IMG/VR virus record: IMGVR_UViG_2657245124_000006
Direction: 5' to 3' (one strand)
DNA length: 24,063 nucleotides
Source: a virus
Taxonomy: Duplodnaviria > Heunggongvirae > Uroviricota > Caudoviricetes
Shown here: one piece after another, positions 1-12,733 of the stretch
How positions within the stretch are numbered: the stretch's first letter is position 1
Layout of the letters: each line of letters starts with the position of its first letter
Translations under genes and position numbers: made by a program
The notes under the pieces: generated by a model
Seen by the model: only the letters and a program-made list of their open reading frames with translations
The model's database searches: none
Told to the model about the DNA's origin: nothing

Positions 1-468
1 TTAATTTAATCGGCTACGATAAAAGTCTCTTGTTATGTTGCGATCGATGACTACTTCACAACGTGCTGAAGGTCTGTAACCCTCACGAGCCTTAATCCAT
101 GGTTCTTCTTTATGAGTCATATCTTCAAGTTGTGCGCCAGAAAAAGCACCGTAGACTTCAAGAACGCCATCAATATGAGCTGCGGTTGCGGCTGGAATGG
201 ATGAAAGATCAAACCCAGGAGTGCGATCTGCAATCGTTATGTCCGAATACAGTGATTTTGTAGAAGAGAACCGGTTATAAATCGCACGGCTTACTGGGCC
301 ATGAATCCAAGCTTGAAACTCCTCATCCACTAACTTTTTATCGAAAAAAGCTAGATACCAAGCATCTGCGTAATAAGCTAATTTTTGCAGCTTCAAATTA
401 GACATAGTTTCACCTGAAGCTAAGATTTTTGTGATGATGTAATCACATAATTGGTTAATATTTATCAT
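1..468 (-). CDS. Panacea-domain (DUF4065) protein, GepA/SocA-like putative antitoxin
   Basis: 155 aa, ATG at 466-468, AGAGGGA ribosome-binding site upstream. The segment 'LKLQKLAYYADAWYLAFFDKKLVDEEFQAWIHGPVSRAIYNRF' matches the DUF4065 signature as I recall it. Stop codon is at window positions 1-3. Confidence 0.7.
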   Translation of the reverse strand: MININQLCDYIITKILASGETMSNLKLQKLAYYADAWYLAFFDKKLVDEEFQAWIHGPVSRAIYNRFSSTKSLYSDITIADRTPGFDLSSIPAATAAHIDGVLEVYGAFSGAQLEDMTHKEEPWIKAREGYRPSARCEVVIDRNITRDFYRSRLN

Positions 469-633: not shown

Positions 634-1653
634 TTACGTAGTTACCATAGTTGCTAATGGATTAAAACGTAGCGCTGTTTCTAGGTGGTCAGGAGCCAGA
701 TGAGCATAGCGCATGGTCATTTTTATGTCGTGATGCCCAAGGATTTTCTGCAGAGCCAGGATGTTTCCGCCGGACATCATAAAGTGTGCTGCGAACGTAT
801 GACGCAGAACGTGTGTTAGCTGACCGCGTGGAAGCACAATAGAAGTCTTATCCATTACAGATAAAAACTGGAAGTAGCAGTCAGTGAAGAAATTGAAACC
901 GTCTAGGGCAATGATTTCCTCATACAGCTCTTTGCTAATCGGAATGCTTCGGTTCTTTTTGCCTTTGGTCCTGACGAATGTGATCCGGTATTTCGTAACC
1001 TGAGAACGGGTTAGGTTCACAGCTTCGCGCCAGCGTGCTCCGGTGCTCAGACAGATTTTAACGACAAGAGCGAGCAGGGGACTTTGGCGGTTGCAGTCGT
1101 ACAATAGCTCGGTAATTTGTTCATGCGTCAGCCAGGCCATCTCCTTTTCTGCGATGGTGAATTTTCGCATGTTCTCCAGTGGGTTCGGATACGACCATTC
1201 GCCCAGGCGGGATAGTTCGCTAAAAACACTACTTAGATAGCTTTGCTCCAGGTTAATGGTGACCGGGCTTGCTCCTTTCTTCCATTTCTCGCTGAAGTAG
1301 ATCTCGCCTGTCAGGCGTTTATCTCGATAGTGGGCAAACATTTTAGAGGTGAGATCAGTTGCAAGGGGATTGCCCAGAGCGTCAACCATCAGCAGCAATT
1401 TGTCATAGACATGCTGCCCAGCAGTCAGTGATTTACCATGTAGTTTGAACCATAGCTCAACCACGTCTTTTAGTGTTCGACGATCCACTGATTCACCTAG
1501 CCAGGGCTTTGCTTCGGTTTCTTCCATCGTGTGACGCTCAAAAGCCAGTGCTTCGCCTTTGGTGGCGAATTGTTTACGCACACGACGCCCACTACGTCCG
1601 GCGGGGTAACATTCGCAAAGCCATTTTCCTGTGGTGAGTTTTCGTACAGCCAT
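634..1653 (-). CDS. int: Tyrosine site-specific integrase, P2-type
   Basis: 339 aa from ATG at 1651-1653 ('MAVRKLTTGKWLCECYPAGRSGRRVRKQFATKGEALAFE'), GGAGGG ribosome-binding site 9 nt upstream. C-terminal 'LRHTFAAHF...GHHDIKMTMRYAHL' carries the R/H/R/Y catalytic residues. The ORF-track start at 1809 is probably an upstream over-extension. Confidence 0.9.
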   Translation of the reverse strand: MAVRKLTTGKWLCECYPAGRSGRRVRKQFATKGEALAFERHTMEETEAKPWLGESVDRRTLKDVVELWFKLHGKSLTAGQHVYDKLLLMVDALGNPLATDLTSKMFAHYRDKRLTGEIYFSEKWKKGASPVTINLEQSYLSSVFSELSRLGEWSYPNPLENMRKFTIAEKEMAWLTHEQITELLYDCNRQSPLLALVVKICLSTGARWREAVNLTRSQVTKYRITFVRTKGKKNRSIPISKELYEEIIALDGFNFFTDCYFQFLSVMDKTSIVLPRGQLTHVLRHTFAAHFMMSGGNILALQKILGHHDIKMTMRYAHLAPDHLETALRFNPLATMVTT

Positions 1654-4571: not shown

Positions 4572-4798
4572 TGGCTGATGCAATGGATCTCGTACAGCAG
4601 CGCGTTGAAGAAGAACGCCAGCGCCATATCCGTGCTGCCCGTGCCAAAACACCGGGCGTGTCTCGCGTGCTTTGTATTGAATGTGAAGCGCCAATTCCGC
4701 CAGCACGCCGCCGCGCCATTCCTGGAGTGCAGCTTTGCATTACCTGCCAGGAAATCGCAGAGCTGAAAGGCAAACATTACAACGGAGGTGCTGTATGA
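4571..4798 (+). CDS. TraR/DksA-family C4 zinc-finger protein
   Basis: 75 aa; 'CIECEAPIPPARRRAIPGVQLCITC' gives C-x2-C-x17-C-x2-C, the TraR/DksA spacing. ATG at 4571. Confidence 0.8.
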   Translation: MADAMDLVQQRVEEERQRHIRAARAKTPGVSRVLCIECEAPIPPARRRAIPGVQLCITCQEIAELKGKHYNGGAV

Positions 4799-5652
4799 GC
4801 ACCATCCTGAAATGGGCGGGTAATAAAACCGCCATTATGTCCGAACTGAAAAAATACCTTCCTGCTGGCCCGCGACTGGTTGAACCTTTCGCGGGTTCTT
4901 GTGCTGTGATGATGGCGACGGATTACCCCAGCTATCTGGTTGCGGATATTAATCCTGATTTAATCAACCTCTATAAAAAGATTGCCGCTGATTGCGAAGC
5001 GTTTATATCTCGTGCCAGAGTTTTATTTGAGGAAGCAAACAGTGAGCTGGCTTATTACAACATAAGACAGGAGTTTAATTACTCAACTGAAATTACTGAT
5101 TTCATGAAGGCGATATATTTCCTGTATCTCAATCGTCACGGTTACCGTGGTTTATGTCGCTATAACAAGAGCGGGCATTTCAACATTCCCTACGGTAATT
5201 ATAAAAATCCGTATTTCCCTGAAAAAGAAATTCGCGCATTTGCAGAGAAAGCCCCGCGGGCAACGTTTATCTGCGCCAGCTTTGATGAAACGCTGGCGAT
5301 GTTGAAGGCGGGGGATGTGGTGTATTGCGATCCGCCGTATGACGGTACGTTTTCCGGCTATCACACTGATGGTTTCACTGAAGATGACCAGTATCACCTG
5401 GCATCCGTTCTTGAACATCGGTCATCAGAAGGTCATCCGGTCATTGTTTCTAACAGTGACACATCCCTGATTCGTTCGCTGTATCGCAATTTCACTCACC
5501 ACTACATCAAGGCAAAACGCAGCATCGGCGTGTCGGCTGGCGAGAGTAAATCTGCAACAGAAATCATTGCTGTTTCCGGGGCGCGCTGCTGGGTGGGATT
5601 TGATCCTTCGCGTGGCGTGGATAGTTCTGCTGTGTACGAGGTGCGTGTATGA
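4795..5652 (+). CDS. dam: DNA adenine N6-methyltransferase, Dam (D12) family
   Basis: 285 aa from ATG at 4795 (GGAGG ribosome-binding site). Motif I-like '[10 protein letters not shown]' and catalytic 'DPPY' ('YCDPPYDGT'). Start overlaps the upstream stop (ATGA); stop overlaps the repA start. Confidence 0.88.
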
Positions 5653-8063
5653 GTCATGCCGATATGAGCGACTCTAGCGGCTTTAACGAGGCCGCTGCAG
5701 CATTTTCATGGAACGGCCCGAAAAAGGCCATAAACCCTTATCTGGACCCGGCGGAAGTTGCGCCGGTTTCTGCGCTTTCAAACCTGATCACTCTGTATGC
5801 TGCCGATAACGAGCAGGAACAGCTGCGCCGCGAGGAATTGAGTGAACAGGTCTGGGAGCGTTATTTCTTTAATGAATCCCGTGATCCTGTCCAGCGCGAA
5901 ATGGAGCAGGATAAGCTCATTAGTCGGGCAAAGCTGGCGCATGAGCAGCAGCGTTTTAACCCGGACATGGTCATTCTGGCGGACGTCAGCGCCCAGCCCA
6001 CCCACATCAGCAAGCCGCTGATGCAACGTATCGAATACTTCAGCAGCCTGGGCAGGCCAAAGGCTTATTCCCGCTATTTGCGTGAGACGATTAAGCCATG
6101 TCTGGAGCGACTGGATTGTGTACGCGACAGTCAGCTATCTACTTCTTTCCGTTTTATGGCAAGCCATCAAGGGCTGGAGGGCCTGCTGATCCTGCCTGAA
6201 ATGAGTCAGGATCAGGTGAAACGCCTGTCCACCCTGGTAGCTGCGCATATGAGCATGTGTCTTGAGGCCGCTTGTGGTGATTTGTATACCAACGATGACG
6301 TAAAGCCAGAAGAAATCCGCAAGACATGGGAAAAGGTGGCAGCGGAAACCCTGCGTCTGGATGTTATCCCGCCTGCGTTTGAGAAACTTCGTCGGAAAAG
6401 AAACCGCCGCAAACCTGTGCCCTATGAACTCATACCGGGTTCGCTGGCACGTATGCTTTGCGCCGACTGGTGGTATCGAAAATTGTGGAAGATGCGTTGC
6501 GAATGGCGGGAAGAGCAGTTGCGTGCTGTCTGTCTGGTCAGCAAAAAAGCATCTCCCTATGTCAGCTATGAAGCCGTGATGCATAAACGTGAGCAGCGCC
6601 GCAAGTCGCTGGAGTTTTTCCGTTCTCATGAACTGGTGAACGAAGACGGAGACACGCTGGATATGGAAGATGTGGTAAACGCCAGCAGCAGCAACCCGGC
6701 ACATCGCCGCAATGAGATGATGGCCTGCGTTAAAGGTCTGGAGCTTATCGCGGAAATGCGCGGTGACTGCGCCGTTTTCTACACCATCACATGTCCGTCA
6801 CGTTTCCATTCCACGCTCAATAACGGCAGGCCCAACCCGACCTGGACAAATGCGACGGTAAGACAAAGCAGCGATTATCTGGTCGGCATGTTTGCTGCAT
6901 TTCGTAAGGCGATGCACAAAACCGGGTTGCGCTGGTATGGCGTACGGGTGGCTGAGCCGCACCATGACGGTACTGTGCACTGGCATCTCATGTGTTTCAT
7001 GCGCAAAAAAGACCGCCGCGCCATTACTGCATTGTTGCGTAAGTTTGCCATCCGTGAAGACCGCGAGGAGCTGGGCAATAACACGGGCCCACGCTTTAAG
7101 TCTGAGCTGATAAACCCACGCAAAGGAACGCCGACAAGCTACATCGCAAAATACATCAGTAAGAACATTGACGGGCGTGGTCTGGCTGGCGAGATCAGCA
7201 AGGAAACGGGTAAATCCCTGCGTGATAACGCCGAATACGTTAATGCCTGGGCGTCTCTGCATCGTGTTCAGCAGTTCCGCTTCTTTGGTATTCCGGGGCG
7301 CCAGGCTTACCGTGAACTGCGATTGCTGGCTGGTCAGGCGGCAAGACAACAGGGTGACAAAAAAGCAGGTGCGCCGGTACTGGATGATCCGCGTCTTGAT
7401 GCCATCCTGGCTGCTGCTGATGCTGGTTGTTTTGCCACCTACATCATGAAGCAGGGCGGCGTACTGGTTCCCCGCAAATATCACCTTATCAGAACAGCTT
7501 ATGAAATTAACGAAGAGCCGACTGCCTATGGCGATCACGGTATTCGTATTTATGGCATCTGGTCACCCATTTCAGAGGGCAAGATCTGCACTCATGCAGT
7601 GAAGTGGAAAATGGTTCGTAAGGCCGTTGACGTTCAGGAGGCGGTAGCCGACCAGGGCGCTTGCGCCCCTTGGACTCGTGGCAATAACTGTCCCCTTGCT
7701 GAAAATTTGTACCAACAAGGGAAAGACAAATCAGCTGATGGGGGCTCCAGAACGGACATTACCCGCATGGATGACAAGGAATTGCACGATTACCTGCACA
7801 GTATGAGCAAAAAAGATCGCCGGGAGCTGGCAGCAAGGTTGCGCTTGGTGAAACCGAAACGGCGTAAAGACTACAAACAGCGAATTACAGATCATCAGCA
7901 TCAGCAGCTCGTCTATGAACTGAAGTCCAGAGGATTTGATGGCAGCGAGAAAGAAGTCGATTTGCTCCTTCGCGGTGGCAGTATTCCGTCAGGAGCAGGC
8001 TTGCGTATCTTCTATCGGAACCAGCGTTTGCGGGAAGATGATAAGTGGCGGAACCTGTATTAA
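5649..8063 (+). CDS. A: Replication initiation protein, P2 gpA-like rolling-circle HUH endonuclease
   Basis: 804 aa. HUH-like 'VHWHLMCF' and two-tyrosine motif '[12 protein letters not shown]'. Position matches P2 gene A. Confidence 0.85.
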
Positions 8064-8155
8064 TTACGCGGGTTAACAATTCGTGCTCTTAATAATACCA
8101 GGCATATCAGGCTGATGAACGTAAAAAAACGTTTTACATCAGTAAGATTATTATA

Positions 8156-8175
8156 TACTGTAAATATAAACAGTG
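8156..8175 (+). promoter_or_regulatory. LexA box (SOS operator)
   Basis: TACTGTAAATATAAACAGTG: CTG-N10-CAG with AT-rich centre, 17/20 match to TACTGTATATATATACAGTA. A TTTACA -35-like hexamer lies just upstream. It is 42 bp before the 8217 start. Confidence 0.65.
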
Positions 8176-8216
8176 GTTATGTATACAGCATTTCTTGTGG
8201 TGTCATAGGAGGAAAG

Positions 8217-8405
8217 ATGCAGGACTATTTTTTGGAGTCTTTGAAGCTCCAGCGCATTGATTTTTTTCTTAAGCTTGTAGCGGCTAGTGAGTGTAGTGAT
8301 GAAGAGAAGGGGCTGGCTTTGCAGTGGGTTTCTGAACTAACAGATGAACTCATGGCAAAAATCAGAACCCACGAATACAACCGCTCAATGGATGTCATCA
8401 GTTGA
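8217..8405 (+). CDS. Small hypothetical protein (62 aa), first gene of the SOS module
   Basis: ATG at 8217 with GGAGGAAAG ribosome-binding site. The track ORF from 8115 would read through the promoter and LexA box. Confidence 0.5.
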   Translation: MQDYFLESLKLQRIDFFLKLVAASECSDEEKGLALQWVSELTDELMAKIRTHEYNRSMDVIS

Positions 8406-8415
8406 GGTGACTTTT

Positions 8416-8649
8416 ATGCGCATTGAAATAATGATCGATAAAGAGCAGAAGATTAGCCAGTCTATCCTGGACGCCCTTGAATCCGAGCTTTACCGCAATC
8501 TGCGCCCCCTGTATCCCAAAACGGTAATTCGTATCCGCAAAGGTAGCTCTAACGGTGTGGAACTGACCGGACTGCAACTGGACGAAGAAAGAAAACAAGT
8601 GATGAAAATTATGCAGAAGGTGTGGGAAGACGACAGCTGGCTGCATTAA
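8416..8649 (+). CDS. dinI: DinI-family protein
   Basis: 77 aa from ATG at 8416 (GAGGTGA ribosome-binding site). 'MRIEIMIDKEQ...LDALESEL...ERKQVMKIMQKVWEDDSWLH' aligns with E. coli DinI as recalled ('MRIEVTIAK...IDALAGEL...DKQRISEILQETWESADDW'). Confidence 0.85.
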   Translation: MRIEIMIDKEQKISQSILDALESELYRNLRPLYPKTVIRIRKGSSNGVELTGLQLDEERKQVMKIMQKVWEDDSWLH

Positions 8650-8651
8650 GA

Positions 8652-8694
8652 AACGTTGCTGGCGTCTGAACTTGCTTCTGACGTCAGCAACGTT
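8652..8694. terminator. Strong hairpin after dinI; possible bidirectional terminator
   Basis: Arms AACGTTGCTGGCGTC and GACGTCAGCAACGTT form a 15-bp stem with one G.U pair and a 13-nt loop. No clean U-tract on the + strand; a short TCTT follows on the - strand. Confidence 0.4.
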
Positions 8695-8915
8695 GAACAA
8701 CTAGTTTAGTGGGGCATTAGTCATGGGGTAAAATACAGTAACCATTATTTTCACTTCCGCTCAGATTTAACCGAACGTTAGTTTTGCTACGTATGATGGG
8801 CTGCAAATTACCTTTTGGGATTTGTGATAGATACGAAAATCCTATTAGATGCTTGTTAGACCGGAAGCGCCACTTCGAACGAAAAGTAATGGCCACTTAT
8901 GCCGGTTTAAAAGCC

Positions 8916-9446
8916 TTAACCTTGTATAGTTATTTGAATATTTTCTTCATTGACACCAAAGTATAGGGCTAGCCCTGCTTTTGCCTCCTGAAGTGTTAAC
9001 GGCTTAACTACATTTTCTTCTTCTTCTTCGTACTCATCACCCGCTTGATCGACAATCGAATTAGTCGGGGTTAATTTTGGAAGAGCTTTAAATTCCAACT
9101 TGTCAGCCTCAATGCCAATGTCTTTGAGGTTGCGATAAGAAACGGGATTCCGATTGCCATCCCATTGTCCTGGGATGTCAATTTCAGCATAAGAATTGAT
9201 GTTTATGATCCAGCGTTTAGGGTTTTCTGGAGCCCTGCTTACTCCCGAGATTCGACCGATCATAAAAGCATGATGATGTTTTGCTTCTTGTGATCCCCAG
9301 TCCTTTCTCGAATTTTGTACACAAACTAAATATTCGTGCTTAGCTGCATGGCTGGCGTCAAGTCTCCATGCTTGGCTTCCCCCTGTGTTCAAAATCTCTG
9401 TTAAACCACGAGCAGTAAGTACAGTAATACAGTTGGTAGTAGCCAT
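8916..9446 (-). CDS. Uncharacterised 176-aa protein, cargo gene at the phage right end
   Basis: ATG at 9444-9446, no competing frame, AT-rich. Acidic patch 'DEYEEEEEN'. I recognise no family. Transcribed divergently from the OLD-like gene. Confidence 0.6.
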   Translation of the reverse strand: MATTNCITVLTARGLTEILNTGGSQAWRLDASHAAKHEYLVCVQNSRKDWGSQEAKHHHAFMIGRISGVSRAPENPKRWIININSYAEIDIPGQWDGNRNPVSYRNLKDIGIEADKLEFKALPKLTPTNSIVDQAGDEYEEEEENVVKPLTLQEAKAGLALYFGVNEENIQITIQG

Positions 9447-9763
9447 TGAATTGTGACCCCGTCTTTTTTAGAGAAATACTATTGATGAATGTAGTTTACG
9501 TATTTTTTTATTGAGTAGTCAAGTTAGTATTCTGCTCGTTATTGGCTGTTTTTTGAGTGTTGTGAGTTAGTACTTTGTGTAGTACCTCTTGGTTTATGAG
9601 GGTTAAATCTAAGTTATGACAAAGGGAGGCAGGGGGAACGCGCAGCGCAAGGTGTACAGGAGGCCATAAGGACTCACTTGAAGTAAGAAAAGATCGATAA
9701 AGCAACAATGCATGTCTATGCCGCATGAATTCGCATGATCGTTTGAGGATCGTTTTAGCTGAG

Positions 9764-9791
9764 GCCCGCTAGGAATGGCGGGCTTTTGTTT
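9764..9791 (+). terminator. Rho-independent terminator
   Basis: GCCCGC - TAGGAATG - GCGGGC followed by TTTTGTTT. U-tract is on the + strand only. Confidence 0.6.
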
Positions 9792-9832
9792 ATGTCATGC
9801 AAGTGCATGAAAACCACTACATAAAGCGGGCA

Positions 9833-9851
9833 GGCGTGGCGGGGATACGAG
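9833..9851. other. Putative cos (cohesive-end) site of the P2/186 family
   Basis: GGCGTGGCGGGGATACGAG. The first 13 nt match the P2/186 cos motif GGCG(A/T)GGCGGGGA as I remember it. Located left of Q/P, where cos is expected. From memory, not a database hit. Confidence 0.45.
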
Positions 9852-9888
9852 CGCGCGCTGGGAGGTATAAGAATGAAGTACAATTAAC

Positions 9889-9916
9889 TTCACTTTGTTG
9901 AGTAAAATGCTATAAG
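9889..9916 (+). promoter_or_regulatory. Putative promoter of the OLD-like gene: TTCACT - 16 bp - TGcTATAAG
   Basis: -35-like and extended -10-like elements about 70 bp upstream of the 9983 start. Confidence 0.35.
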
Positions 9917-9982
9917 AATAATGCAAATTATTGAGTCCCATTAGTTCAAAACTTAGGGATATCTTATGTGAAAGGAGGTTAT

Positions 9983-11668
9983 ATGTTAGATAAATTGATT
10001 TTTAATTCAGGAAGTAATCCAACATCTAAATCTTCATTATCGGTTGACTTGACTCCATTGACAATTTTTGTGGGGCCGAATAATAGTGGTAAATCTAGAG
10101 CTTTAATCGATATAGAAAATCAACTGACAACCCGAAATGCAGCGCAGGGAGAAGTAATAAAACAGATATTAATCAAACCACTTTCTGAGGATGAAGCAAA
10201 AAAGGAAATTGAATCTTTACAAGTTGAGCCAAACCAGGATGAAAAGCATGCGGGGCATGTTGTTTTATCTAGGCTAAACCTCCGTGGTGAAGGAATATCT
10301 AGGATTCTAGTGTATTTGGATGGAATGTTAAGAGAATTCCAGCAACCCAATGAATTCAATCGGGAGCATCTATATCAATATTACTCGTTGCTGACTCTAA
10401 GGTTGGATGGTAGAAGTCGACTTTCCTTAACTTCAAGTCAAGGTTCATCCGATTTACAAGGAGAACCTACGAATAACCTTTCATTTCTTTTTAAAAATAA
10501 TAAAGCAAGGATGGAGCTAAGAGATATCGTTTTTGATGCTTTCGGGAAGTATCTTGTTATTGATCCAACAAATATAGGTTATCTTAGAATTCGTCTTTCT
10601 GAGCGCGCTCCTGAGACTGAACAAGAAGAAAGAGGTTGGGATGAAAAGTCAGTGCTTTTTCATTCAAAAGCGTCATTGATTACAGAGGCTAGCGATGGTG
10701 TTAATGCTTTTGTTGGGATGATGATTTCGCTGATAGTTGGCTCACCAAAGGTGACTCTAATTGATGAGCCGGAAGCTTTTTTACATCCATCCTTATGCTC
10801 AAAGTTAGGAAAGGAAATATCTAGGATTAGTGCTCATAGTAATAAAAATGTGTTTATTTCAACGCATAGCGCTAATTTTTTAATGGGTTGTGTTCAAGGT
10901 AAAGTGCCATTGAATATAGTTAGGCTTACTTTTGATGGTAAATCTGGTACGTCTAGATTACTAACAAAGGAACAATTGACGCCGCTCATGAGAAATCCGT
11001 TATTAAGATCTATTGGTGTGCTAAACGCATTGTTTTATAATTACGTTGTCGTTACTGAAGCGGATGCAGATAGGGCATTTTATCAAGAGATTAATGAGCG
11101 CTTATTGGCTGCTGGAGATCCTCGGGGTATTGAGGGATGCCTGTTTTTGAATGCTCAAAACAAACAAACTGTTTGGGATATAGTAAAACCCCTTCGTGAG
11201 CTAGGTATTCCCTGCGTTGGAGTGGTAGATATCGATATATTGAAGGAGGGAGGAGTTGTATGGAAAAAACCAATGCTTGGAGCTTTTTTTCCAGAAATGA
11301 AGCATGAAACTTTAGGTTTGGAAAGACAAAAGCTTTTTCAAGCCTTCAAAAATACGAATAAAAATATGAAGACAGATGGGGGCCTCTCCTTGTTATCGGG
11401 TTCAGATAAAACCGCCTGCTCTGAGTTTTTTAAATCCCTTTCAGATTATGGGGTTTTTGTCGTTCCAACGGGCGAGATCGAGTCTTGGTTGCAAAATCTT
11501 GAAATAGGTCGAGGAAAGAATACTTGGTTAACAAGTATTTTCGAGAAGATGGGGGATGATCCTAATGATGAATCATATGTGAAGCCATCTGAAGGTGATG
11601 TTTGGGATTTTATTGGGAATATAAAGCACTGGTTGGTTAACCCTGAAAGGAAGGGTATTCCCGAGTGA
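9983..11668 (+). CDS. OLD-family / AbiL-like predicted nuclease (ABC-type ATPase plus C-terminal Toprim-like domain)
   Basis: 561 aa from ATG at 9983 (AGGAGG ribosome-binding site; track start at 9968 is GTG). Walker A 'GPNNSGKS', Walker B/D-loop 'VTLIDEPEAFLHPS', H-loop-like 'ISTHSAN'. C-terminal 'VVVTEADAD' and 'VGVVDIDIL' fit a Toprim E...DxD pattern. Very AT-rich. Confidence 0.8.
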   Translation: MLDKLIFNSGSNPTSKSSLSVDLTPLTIFVGPNNSGKSRALIDIENQLTTRNAAQGEVIKQILIKPLSEDEAKKEIESLQVEPNQDEKHAGHVVLSRLNLRGEGISRILVYLDGMLREFQQPNEFNREHLYQYYSLLTLRLDGRSRLSLTSSQGSSDLQGEPTNNLSFLFKNNKARMELRDIVFDAFGKYLVIDPTNIGYLRIRLSERAPETEQEERGWDEKSVLFHSKASLITEASDGVNAFVGMMISLIVGSPKVTLIDEPEAFLHPSLCSKLGKEISRISAHSNKNVFISTHSANFLMGCVQGKVPLNIVRLTFDGKSGTSRLLTKEQLTPLMRNPLLRSIGVLNALFYNYVVVTEADADRAFYQEINERLLAAGDPRGIEGCLFLNAQNKQTVWDIVKPLRELGIPCVGVVDIDILKEGGVVWKKPMLGAFFPEMKHETLGLERQKLFQAFKNTNKNMKTDGGLSLLSGSDKTACSEFFKSLSDYGVFVVPTGEIESWLQNLEIGRGKNTWLTSIFEKMGDDPNDESYVKPSEGDVWDFIGNIKHWLVNPERKGIPE

Positions 11669-11675
11669 GTTTATT

Positions 11676-11700
11676 GAGCCGCTTTAGCGGCTCTTTTCAT
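11676..11700 (+). terminator. Rho-independent terminator after the OLD-like gene
   Basis: GAGCCGC - TTTA - GCGGCTC followed by TTTTCAT, sitting between the convergent OLD-like and Q genes. Confidence 0.6.
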
Positions 11701-11704
11701 ATTC

Positions 11705-12733
11705 CTATGCAAGGTTATATTCATTAAATTGCATTATTGGCTCCTTTATCCATTCATTTACTTCTTGAAGCCTTTTTTGCAATGGAATTAGCTCATTACG
11801 GACAAAGACCCTGCTGGCTTTCTCCACATCCCCAAATCCCCCGACATTATTTGGCATTATCCCCATCATTTGTGGCGGCACACGATGCGCAGCCATCATG
11901 TCATCCCGGCTCACGTTCTTGATATTCAGAAACTCATCCTTCGCCGCGACTTCTGACAACGGGATGATCTGAAGCCCGTCCTTTTTGCCGTTAGGCGAGT
12001 ACATAAACAGGTTGCGGAAGTTGCCAGGGCCTTTGGCGCTTTTCATCGCATTGCGGAGGTTGTTCACATCCTCCTGGTTCTGCGCGGCATCGGTCATGTA
12101 CATGATGAAGCCTGCATGACTGCCGTTAATGTAATACTTCCGGCGGAACAGCGTGGCGGACTCGTTGAGCAGGGCTGACGGAATGGCAGAAAGATAACCT
12201 GGCAGGCCGTAGATCTCCTGGTTGATGTCAGGTTCCATCAGATGAAAAATGCTGCCTTTCGTGAACTGATACGGCTGGGTTGTCATACCGTATTGCACAA
12301 ACCAGTAGGTATCCAGGTCTAACCCGCGTCGGGTGTATTTTGCCAGCGCAGGCTCAAGGGCTATAACTTCACCGAATCGGTTCGTGCGTTTCTCCAGGTA
12401 GGCGTTACCAAATACCAGATAGTCCTGCACAAAACGCGAAAAAGCCTGTTGGCTGAGCAGCGGATGAGGGATATAGGTACTGGTCAGAATGTTGCACTTT
12501 ACTGCAATCGGGGAACTGTGATGCACGGCAGCCCGGAAGGTGCGCGCCAGTCCGTCAAAACTTACGGGTGGCTCATACCAGCGATCCGTCTGTACGCATT
12601 CTACATAGTCCAGCAGTTCGCGGCGGTCCAGTACAGGAATGGGATCACCAAAGCTGAAAGCTTCGGCTGAAGTTTGATTTTTATGCTGGCTCCGTTTCGT
12701 CGCAGCAGCGCGGTTTTTCTTACTCTTTCCCAT
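11705..12733 (-). CDS. Q: Portal protein, P2 gpQ-like
   Basis: 342 aa from ATG at 12731-12733 (track start is TTG). Same size and position as P2 Q. Start overlaps the P stop. Confidence 0.9.
   Translation of the reverse strand: MGKSKKNRAAATKRSQHKNQTSAEAFSFGDPIPVLDRRELLDYVECVQTDRWYEPPVSFDGLARTFRAAVHHSSPIAVKCNILTSTYIPHPLLSQQAFSRFVQDYLVFGNAYLEKRTNRFGEVIALEPALAKYTRRGLDLDTYWFVQYGMTTQPYQFTKGSIFHLMEPDINQEIYGLPGYLSAIPSALLNESATLFRRKYYINGSHAGFIMYMTDAAQNQEDVNNLRNAMKSAKGPGNFRNLFMYSPNGKKDGLQIIPLSEVAAKDEFLNIKNVSRDDMMAAHRVPPQMMGIMPNNVGGFGDVEKASRVFVRNELIPLQKRLQEVNEWIKEPIMQFNEYNLA

Follow-up and report, generated by a model that had tools for sequence, protein, structure and literature searches.

The window analysed here is a 24,063-nt stretch of DNA from a prophage in E. 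coli 1297KP that is 186-like and of the P2/186 type. The interval examined (8650-11704) runs from the DinI module to portal gene Q and, with its flanks, comprises the following features.

8158-8173, plus strand: LexA box CTGTAAATATAAACAG of the SOS operon, a perfect match, in the left backbone flank outside the cargo
8416-8649, plus strand: DinI-like gene, the final backbone gene on the gpA side (Pfam DinI, 79 bits; NCBI WP_001217562)
8652-8694, plus strand: 19-bp inverted repeat 3′ of DinI, found by repeat search, at the position of the 186 t95a terminator
8700-9708: R-slot cassette, on the gpA/DinI side of cos, a 1-kb block with the 176-aa gene and flanking non-coding DNA
8916-9446, minus strand: gene for a 176-aa protein (WP_000246368) with a predicted PUA-like (EVE/YTH/ASCH) barrel (residues ~1-125), an acidic linker (128-144), and a C-terminal helix motif
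9493-9522, minus strand: promoter-like site TTGACT-18-TAAACT, ~47 bp upstream of the 176-aa start codon, from a consensus scan; a match of a type expected at chance frequency
9709-9859: conserved cos core between the two slots, with GCATG repeats, a terminator, and the cohesive-end site, near-invariant in a six-prophage alignment
9761-9786, plus strand: intrinsic terminator hairpin with T tail (terminator scan: 11 pairs, 6 GC), counterpart of 186 t95b
9833-9851: cos 19-mer GGCGTGGCGGGGATACGAG, the cohesive-end site, aligned to P2 cosL GGCGAGGCGGGGAAAGCAC and 186 GGCGTGGCGGGGAAAGCAT
9860-11704: L-slot cassette, on the portal side of cos, with the OLD-like gene, its leader, and a terminator (block 9870-11690)
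9983-11668, plus strand: predicted stand-alone OLD-family ABC-ATPase + Toprim nuclease, 561 aa (WP_057698812), from Pfam, PADLOC, and alignment
11676-11693, plus strand: GC-rich hairpin lying where the OLD and portal genes converge (terminator scan: 7 pairs, 6 GC, then a T tail)
11705-12733, minus strand: portal gene Q, the right backbone flank (Pfam Phage_portal; NCBI annotation)

The initial annotation described an AT-rich island between an SOS/DinI module and portal gene Q, with two divergent genes separated by a structured non-coding region of about 520 bp, and the composition, flanks, and gene layout agree with that description. In particular, GC content is 41.3% over 8650-9708 and 37.8% over 9860-11704, against 53.0% in the cos core and 55.9% in the structural-gene backbone to the right. 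The left flank comprises the LexA box, a 62-aa ORF, and the DinI-like gene, which is kept in most related prophages; the right flank is portal gene Q. The LexA box is the sole zero-mismatch match in the window, and its position matches the p95 LexA site of 186. The inverted repeat at 8652-8694 marks the left edge of the variable region, and the backbone homology of other genomes stops at about 8660-8705. The two divergent ORFs occupy 8916-9446 (minus strand) and 9968/9983-11668 (plus strand); for the latter, both the NCBI annotation and a Shine-Dalgarno sequence, AGGAGG, point to a start at the ATG at 9983 and hence a product of 561 aa. The hairpin at 11676-11693 is likely a bidirectional terminator. 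The same prophage encodes a DNA adenine methylase.

The gap between the two genes (9447-9982, about 520-535 bp) contains a genuine cos site, as had been proposed. The ~150-bp cos core is nearly invariant among six prophages that carry differing cargo on either side, and aligns with the P2 and 186 genome ends. The 19-mer and its conserved flanks align with P2 cosL and 186 cos, and all 14 of the related E. coli prophage loci compared carry the 19-mer unchanged. A search with the P2 cos 19-mer at up to 3 mismatches gave no match; the 3′ half of the site differs, and cos was located by alignment instead. The terminator at 9761-9786 aligns with the 186 right end and is conserved in the six-prophage alignment. 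The gap is structured to the extent of this hairpin, whereas RNA folding of its cargo-specific DNA is no better than that of shuffled sequences on either strand (z = +0.33 and +0.44). A permissive Rfam scan of 8400-10100 returned no match, ruling out a retron or other known non-coding RNA in the gap. The suggestion that each gene has its own signals is upheld only in part: consensus promoter matches occur at chance level (8 found, 7.9 expected), and we therefore claim no OLD promoter.

The interval has the characteristics of the gpA-gpQ hotspot of P2-like prophages: it lies between replication gene A and portal gene Q, adjoins cos, and varies in gene content. Its flanks are common to 1290 of 5426 complete E. 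coli genomes, in most of which the cos core is the middle one of three conserved pieces; the whole interval, with the same gene content, is shared by only one. Cargo at this locus in other genomes includes TIR, SIR2, HEPN, PIN, KAP NTPase, DUF262, retron, HipA/HIRAN, and STAS proteins. The comparison with related prophages thus bears out the proposal of a variable accessory/defence hotspot. The locus itself is not new: its type and the OLD family are already established, and its location and behaviour are the same as those of the gpA-gpQ hotspot described by Rousset et al. 2022 (PMC9122126) and Moura de Sousa et al. 2026 (PMC13586616). These papers treat the region as a single hotspot, whereas here we find two slots split by the cos core, in 14 E. 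coli loci.

The two slots vary separately. In the six-prophage alignment, the sequence varies with the R cargo to the left of 9709 and with the L cargo to the right of 9859. Of the 14 loci, 13 have an occupied L slot and 10 an occupied R slot, with cargo on either, both, or neither side; P2 and 186 have only about 190 bp between cos and portal gene Q. Neither gene is universally conserved. The R-slot block occurs, at 98.5-100% identity, in only 8 of the 5426 genomes, and the L-slot block (9870-11690) occurs, at ≥99.8% identity, in 19, of which 18 have other R-slot cargo. Both cassettes are found together in the source genome only, that is, in 1 of the 26 genomes having either. Elsewhere, the 176-aa gene is paired with HipA/HIRAN or a STAS module, and the OLD gene with a 111-aa gene, four hypothetical genes, or exonuclease+HipA+HIRAN; entries of Rousset Table S5 (PMC9122126) add OLD pairings with a HEPN or an acetyltransferase gene. 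Each gene is also found alone outside P2 phages. The 111-aa and 141-aa R-slot proteins of other prophages, compared by eye, are unrelated to the 176-aa protein. A 59-aa ORF (8717-8896, minus strand) was considered as a partner of the 176-aa gene and rejected, its 74-75% identical homologs in Hafnia and Pseudenterobacter having unrelated downstream genes.

The OLD-family assignment of the L-slot protein is confirmed by matches to Pfam AAA_15, AAA_21, and OLD-like_TOPRIM, by the PADLOC "Old" model (71.7 bits), and by a collinear alignment with P2 Old at 24% identity. The protein has an N-terminal ABC-type ATPase with the Walker A lysine, Walker B acid, D-loop histidine, and H-loop histidine. Its C-terminal Toprim domain has the acidic residues for metals A and B as well as a basic residue for the transition state. 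Specifically, K37, D261, H268, H295, E359, D363, D416, D418, and E500 are invariant in 24 diverse homologs, E498 is conserved in 23 of them, and K512 in 19. The Walker A lysine, Walker B aspartate, D-loop and H-loop histidines, DxD motif, and distal acidic pair are shared with P2 Old, in which mutation of the matching residues abolishes killing (PMC7049728). Sequence aligners set E359 opposite P2 E402 and leave P2 E398 unmatched; in the model, E359 lies where the first Toprim strand ends, which suggests that it is the metal-A glutamate. In an AF2 monomer, a helical/strand insertion separates Walker A from Walker B, at about residues 60-230. A single-sequence search of the PDB gave no match, and a profile search returned generic ABC ATPases only, plus a weak match to the Thermus scotoductus (Ts) OLD that covers the N-terminal part alone (E 0.0025).

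The neighbours of the OLD-like gene are cos and portal gene Q. Neither here nor in four other contexts of the gene is there a downstream UvrD/PcrA/Rep helicase (Class 2), a retron RT/ncRNA (Class 3), or a separate AriB (Class 4), and homologs in Methylolobus, Canicola, and Hafnia are likewise solitary. By these sequence criteria the protein is a Class-1-type single-gene OLD retaining the catalytic residues of P2 Old. Gabija (GajA with the UvrD-like helicase GajB) was rejected, as the helicase gene is absent from the slot and in PADLOC the GajA models score much lower than the Old model. PARIS (AriA with the DUF4435/Toprim protein AriB, or a fusion) was rejected as well: the AriA models cover just the ATPase part (~54 bits), the match of the best AriAB fusion model is confined to residues 262-310, and the second gene is absent. 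Entries of Rousset Table S5 (PMC9122126) contain near-identical OLDs (WP_057698812, WP_001682736, and WP_033555189) as "AAA_15/AAA_21", with varying neighbours.

P2 Old is itself a Class 1 OLD nuclease, the abortive tRNase behind P2-lambda interference, and, like the OLD-like gene here, its gene is a moron beside cos in a P2-family prophage. The initial annotation placed P2 tin and old at this position. The hotspot is the same, but P2 tin and old are both on the gpA side of cos and are co-transcribed leftward, with old upstream of tin, whereas the OLD-like gene lies on the portal side, points rightward, and stands alone, with no tin gene; on these grounds, and at 24% identity, we reject it as an orthologue or positional counterpart of P2 old. 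The Ts OLD, the V. cholerae (Vc) OLD, and E. coli YbjD/OldB resemble the OLD-like protein in being isolated ATPase+Toprim proteins that lack a helicase or retron partner, and YbjD shows no significant sequence similarity to it on comparison. P2 Old has RecBCD status or ssDNA hairpins as its trigger and the tRNA anticodon stem as its substrate, whereas Vc OLD is a RecBCD-independent DNA nickase, and the Toprim domain of YbjD is not needed for the anti-phage phenotypes tested. Because the known members differ and similarity is low, no common mechanism can be assumed for Class 1 OLDs, and neither trigger nor substrate is transferable to the OLD-like protein. Its relatives and its location suggest an anti-phage activity for this subfamily. 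By analogy with P2 Old and V. cholerae OLD, the gene may be a lysogenic-conversion gene that would stay silent until the ATPase module receives a cue of infection; the Toprim nuclease would then be freed on tRNA or DNA, aborting the infection of a competing phage.

The 176-aa protein had been called unassignable, and at the level of profiles this stands: searches of Pfam, PADLOC, and NCBIfam gave no match, and none of 37 family members matches a Pfam EVE, ASCH, YTH, or PUA profile at E up to 1. A PDB search with the family profile gave no sequence match at E up to 10, nor did one with the sequence alone, and a BFVD fold search returned uncharacterised jumbo-phage proteins only. At fold level, however, the protein is assignable. 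A confident model places a PUA-like pseudo-barrel in residues ~1-125; residues 128-144 form a disordered acidic linker, which leads to a conserved C-terminal helix motif of 30 residues. The barrel points to a PUA-like reader. W27, F61, Y86, W95, Y104, H57, R78, and R99 are invariant in the family and are candidate residues for an aromatic-cage pocket that would bind a modified base or nucleotide. The PUA-like (EVE/YTH/ASCH) fold reads modified bases or nucleotides. Compared with PUA/EVE-type readers (the VcaM4I/TspA15I group, PD-T4-3, and McrB N-terminal domains; YTH/THYN1), the 176-aa protein differs in having neither a nuclease/effector domain nor a Pfam EVE/ASCH/YTH match, and in having the acidic linker and the C-terminal helix motif.

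The family comprises about 1000 clusters at 50% identity, lacks annotation, and is carried singly on phages, ICEs, and small plasmids. In conjugative elements its members lie between TraC and TraU, beside TraG_N, or between ParB_N/DUF932 and an SNF2 helicase; one member is the sole cargo of a 4.7-kb mobilisable Acinetobacter plasmid, and another lies within a phage head module. The barrel is fused in some relatives to DUF3427+HNH, AbiTii, or a MazE/AbrB domain, and such fusions are rare (only 2-4 among the 150 relatives listed). PUA+DUF3427+HNH is a published architecture of modification-dependent restriction enzymes (PMC6765204). We rejected that identity for the 176-aa protein, which has no nuclease domain; DUF3427+HNH_2 occurs only in a distant relative (P0323). 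Among the entries of Rousset Table S5 (PMC9122126) covered here, WP_000246368 does not occur. In the closest reference phage, 186, the same slot between tum/DinI and cos holds orf97. Orf97 blocks 186 infection when plasmid-expressed, and it lies on the strand of tum, read through from the SOS promoter p95, whereas the 176-aa gene lies on the opposite strand.

We conclude that the interval is the cos-proximal accessory hotspot and that it probably holds two independent single-gene modules with no mutual need, a Class-1-type OLD in the L slot and a PUA-like protein in the R slot. The conserved 150-bp cos core would serve as a fixed anchor, and each slot would be exchanged separately via recombination with related prophages. 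Because the cassettes assort independently, the two genes appear to act separately, and the distribution thereby answers the question, left open in the initial annotation, of whether they act together. A single two-component system, in which the PUA-like protein would be the sensor of modified phage DNA and would switch on or guide the OLD nuclease, with divergent promoters around cos for co-regulation, would fit the adjacency, divergence, and AT-richness of the genes and the partnerships of OLD-type ATPase/Toprim proteins in Gabija, PARIS, and retron systems (PMC10568477). Co-occurrence in a single genome, the many other partners or solitary occurrences of each gene on other element types, and the conserved cos core, which sends the two genes to opposite ends of the packaged linear genome, make such a system extremely improbable; the distribution brings it close to refuted. 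It is also very improbable, though less so, that the OLD-like protein works for the prophage itself (in replication, recombination, DNA repair, or the processing of cos ends) instead of in defence. In favour of such a role, the gene directly adjoins cos; in addition, Cran1, an archaeal OLD, is reportedly essential as a cell-cycle gene, and it is unclear what YbjD natively does in E. coli (PMC13261556). However, the OLD cassette is missing from about 98% of similar prophages (19 of 1290 have it) and, at this site, from P2 and 186, and the gene is therefore dispensable for the phage life cycle; moreover, in unrelated bacteria members of the family stand alone beside restriction and toxin-antitoxin genes, and a decayed prophage remnant in Hafnia still has one.

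For the independent R-slot module, relatives and location suggest an anti-phage activity of the 176-aa family. Because the protein has no enzymatic effector domain, it would most likely work through binding alone, occluding or sequestering modified nucleic acid or nucleotide to the benefit of its mobile element; the outcome would be either exclusion of rival phages or shielding of the element from modification-dependent restriction. A counter-defence role, in which an effector-less copy of a sensor masks modified bases on the element's own DNA or sponges a modified-nucleotide alarm and so aids establishment in new hosts, is possible though not probable. The reader fold lacking an effector, the single carriage by conjugative elements, the member that is sole plasmid cargo, the member in a phage head module, and the adenine methylase of the carrier prophage all fit such a role, as does the reported binding of m6-dAMP, as an immune trigger, by a PUA domain (bioRxiv 10.64898/2026.01.15.699771). 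Against it, defence genes dominate the gpA-gpQ hotspot, just 28 of 1511 P2 elements had detected anti-defence genes (PMC13586616), and the effectors of the fused relatives (HNH, AbiTii) are of defence type, equally fitting a defence sensor.

A more far-reaching reading, possible yet doubtful, joins two proposals: that the 176-aa protein founds a new widespread family (~1000 clusters) of binding-only, effector-less PUA-like readers, and that gpA-gpQ is two hotspots joined at cos. Such a reader might be either a decoy or sponge blinding modification-dependent restriction or modified-nucleotide alarm pathways, or a new one-protein exclusion factor coating modified phage DNA; the C-terminal helix on its acidic tether would be an autoinhibitory or oligomerising switch.

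These results have consequences for how such loci are handled. The two genes are to be regarded as separate units for cloning and assay. Catalogues of gpA-gpQ "arrangements" mix unrelated systems, and the 19-nt cos site could set system boundaries; if the published single hotspot is two joined at cos, the reported 1,650 arrangements would shrink. The OLD-like protein represents an untried, strongly length-conserved subfamily of stand-alone OLDs, in a class with few members whose characterised representatives are mechanistically divergent. The predicted fold of the 176-aa protein offers an initial structural foothold in a protein family that is spread across kinds of mobile elements, lacks annotation, and may read modified nucleic acids with no effector of its own; such a reader could be a minimal defence of a new type or a novel form of anti-restriction decoy.

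The window matches the E. coli 1297KP chromosome (NZ_CM173856.1) at 100% identity. The prophage belongs to the P2 family and is 186-like; its genes for integrase, CI, CII, Fil, a Dam-type methylase and replication endonuclease A come before the head, lysis and tail genes. The gene order around the cargo interval (8650-11704) confirms the presence, between DinI and portal gene Q, of the two divergent genes described in the initial annotation.

Gene order around the cargo interval
5649-8063, + strand: gene A
8158-8173: perfect LexA box
8217-8405, + strand: 62-aa ORF (PHROG 698)
8416-8649, + strand: DinI-like gene, 77 aa
8652-8694: 19-bp inverted repeat
8916-9446, - strand: 176-aa ORF
between the 176-aa and ATPase/Toprim ORFs: gene-free stretch of ~530 bp
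9983-11668, + strand: ATPase/Toprim ORF, from ATG 9983 with AGGAGG upstream (GTG 9968 is the mechanical ORF start)
11676-11693: GC hairpin
from 11705, - strand: portal gene Q

The SOS equivalent in phage 186 is tum, a single longer ORF with a DinI-like C-terminus, in place of the separate 62-aa and 77-aa ORFs of the window. Transcription from the SOS side past the hairpin at 8652-8694 would run antisense to the 176-aa gene.

The interval is AT-rich, as had been noted, with GC contents of 41.3% (8650-9708) and 37.8% (9860-11704), as compared with 53.0% in the stretch between and 55.9% in the structural genes. The putative cos site is also borne out: the sequence at 9833-9851 (GGCGTGGCGGGGATACGAG) aligns with P2 cosL and 186 cos, and has a conserved GCGCGC after it. 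Ahead of it lie a terminator that corresponds to 186 t95b and the GTGCATgAAAACC...ATAAAGCGGGCA segment, which is likewise conserved. The stretch 9709-9830, from the R-slot boundary to cos, contains five to six GCATG/TGCAT repeats that P2 and 186 share at their right ends; these are possible recognition elements for terminase. An Rfam search of the gap between the cargo genes returned no match, and the cargo-specific part of the gap folds no better than shuffled sequence; thus, the region of ~520 bp that had been called structured and non-coding is indeed non-coding, but is structured at the terminator only.

A megablast search of 5426 complete E. coli genomes (query 8000-12200) detected the flanks of the interval in 1290 genomes and the whole interval in only one. 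Most matches consist of three pieces: the end of A plus DinI, a block of ~150 bp, and the portal gene. Between the pieces, other genomes carry TIR, SIR2, HEPN, PIN, KAP NTPase, DUF262, DprA, HipA/HIRAN, STAS, S1 peptidase or retron genes, or none. This diversity supports the proposed variable cargo/defence hotspot, and the comparison with related prophages shows that gene content varies and that the two genes are not conserved in all relatives. Alignment of six prophages places the middle block at window 9709-9859, with the sequence to its left tracking the DinI-side gene and the sequence to its right tracking the portal-side gene. The gpA-gpQ region beside cos has already been described as a single defence hotspot (Rousset et al. 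2022; Moura de Sousa et al. 2026), often with more than one system present (Rousset et al. 2022); we found no mention of a split at cos in either of them. Our alignments reveal two slots divided at cos: an R slot, from DinI to cos, and an L slot, from cos to portal gene Q. All 14 E. coli loci examined have the cos 19-mer without a mismatch; with this as a marker, the R slot is filled in 10 of the 14 and the L slot in 13, and both are empty in one prophage. P2 tin and old sit in the R slot, and the spacing from cosL to the portal gene in P2 and 186 is only ~190 bp. The OLD gene of the window, in the L slot, does not correspond to P2 old.

A HipA+HIRAN pair occupies the L slot in CFSAN061772 (locus L006, 5805-7456) and, with a 3'-5' exonuclease, the R slot in N1420 (locus L010, 3471-5083), indicating that cassettes can cross between the sides of cos. 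In BL21(DE3), a retron (effector plus RT, annotated 'St85 family') occupies the L slot (locus L042, 1140-3996), and the R slot holds an acidic 111-aa gene (WP_001059831), the same as the companion of the OLD gene in strain 1105. In TKEC21-59 (locus L039, 2605-3300), the R slot contains DUF2971 and the L slot DprA, with ~700 bp from cos to dprA unannotated; since the validated DprA system of Rousset includes a PRTase, a gene has possibly been missed or degraded in this stretch. A Panacea-domain gene and a neighbouring hypothetical gene (window 1-468, - strand, and 241-1469 of locus L001, upstream of the window start) lie between chromosomal rcdA and the integrase gene of the prophage (window 634-1653). 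They appear to form a further site of cargo, at the att-integrase junction; PMC13586616 mentions this as a minor hotspot of P2.

Whether the two genes act jointly or separately had been left open; their distribution answers that they work independently. Eight genomes carry the R cassette (8700-9700) and 19 carry the L cassette (9870-11690), with both in the source genome only; given 1290 backbone genomes, ~0.1 co-occurrences are expected if the cassettes are independent and 8 if they form an obligate pair. Elsewhere, the L-slot companion of the 176-aa gene is HipA+HIRAN or a three-gene STAS module, and the R-slot companion of the OLD gene is the 111-aa gene, four hypothetical genes, or exonuclease+HipA+HIRAN; Table S5 of Rousset et al. 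adds a HEPN or acetyltransferase gene as further OLD partners. Packaging leaves one gene at each end of the linear genome.

The HMM searches proposed in the initial annotation yielded Pfam and PADLOC matches for the OLD-like protein and none for the 176-aa protein. The OLD-like protein (561 aa, WP_057698812) matches AAA_15, AAA_21 and, just over threshold, OLD-like_TOPRIM, and its best PADLOC model is Old, in agreement with its designation as an OLD-family ATPase/Toprim protein. The OLD family is known and the protein already catalogued. Its homologs form a large family of more than 3500 matches, fixed in length at ~561 aa and 53-60% identical across distant Proteobacteria. Homologs are solitary in every context examined. 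The Methylolobus homolog adjoins a BrnT/BrnA pair, the Canicola homolog is close to a type I restriction gene, and the Hafnia homolog lies within a decayed P2-like remnant, with a cos-like site directly upstream. Class 1 OLD is defined as an isolated gene without a helicase (PMC7049728; PMC13261556), and the OLD-like protein fits this definition.

In Hafnia alvei, the OLD gene has outlived its phage. The decayed prophage, beside ybjL (loci L018 and L019, 3851-7300), has kept a DUF6236 gene, an OLD gene (64% identical) and a portal fragment, with the cos-like site at 4903-4921 (3 mismatches); an Ogr gene is present in L019 only.

The OLD-like protein is collinear with P2 Old (24% identity, 515 aligned columns), for which the residues essential to killing were established by Schiltz et al. 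(PMC7049728). In particular, P2 Old K37, D299, H306, H332, D453, D455, D541 and E543 align with K37, D261, H268, H295, D416, D418, E498 and E500 of the OLD-like protein, and the aligners differ on K550, pairing it with R510 or K512. The aligners place E359 opposite P2 E402 and leave P2 E398 without a match. In the model, E359 stands at the end of the first Toprim strand, and it is invariant together with D361 and D363; E359 is therefore probably the metal-A glutamate and D363 the equivalent of P2 E402. [quoted passage not shown] Similarity of the OLD-like protein to YbjD is below detection. The mechanism of the characterised OLDs cannot confidently be carried over to the OLD-like protein, and we found no literature report of its being tested.

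The 176-aa protein (WP_000246368) belongs to a real, conserved family, with 74 homologs down to 36% identity sharing 16 invariant positions, and 1013 cluster representatives in a profile search, nearly all of 160-190 aa and with the same two-part layout. It has no match in Pfam, PADLOC, NCBIfam or PDB sequences, its sole database match being PHROG 37247 (function unassigned). Though without sequence-database annotation, the protein is not unassignable, contrary to the earlier description, since its fold can be assigned from an AF2 model (mean pLDDT 85), in which a PUA-like barrel (~residues 5-125) is joined through an acidic, disordered linker (128-144) to a C-terminal helix, confidently predicted, within the conserved motif PLTxxEAKAGLAxxFGVxxxxIxITIxG. 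Fold relatives listed include YTH domains, VcaM4I, the 5hmC-specific PD-T4-3, DrmA, THYN1 and ASCH proteins, with McrB N-terminal domains just under the top 20. In rare relatives, the C-terminal helix is replaced by a DUF3427+HNH, AbiTii or MazE/AbrB domain; PUA placed ahead of DUF3427+HNH is the architecture already published for modification-dependent restriction enzymes (PMC6765204). One relative from the profile search, P0228 (224 aa), has a tandem barrel duplication and lacks the C-terminal helix.

Mobile elements of many kinds carry the stand-alone form on its own: further P2-like prophages, a small integrase element, ICE transfer regions, a site between ParB_N/DUF932 and an SNF2 helicase, an Aeromonas prophage (between the portal and capsid genes), and a 4.7-kb mobilisable Acinetobacter plasmid, as sole cargo. 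We found no conserved partner gene in the neighbourhoods of homologs. In our reading, the 176-aa protein would be a reader domain acting through binding alone. Such a protein may exclude rivals or, slightly less probably, may shield the element that carries it against modification-dependent restriction or against alarm signalling. The DNA adenine methylase gene in the early operon (4795-5652, + strand) may bear on a methylated-base reader in the same prophage; it belongs to the backbone and is present too in prophages without the 176-aa gene.

Taken together, the initial observation is confirmed and its interpretation supported, with corrections concerning the P2 old counterpart, the independence of the two genes and the fold of the 176-aa protein. 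The two-slot geometry is a useful refinement when defining systems at the gpA-gpQ locus, and it is the PUA-like family that could repay experiments.
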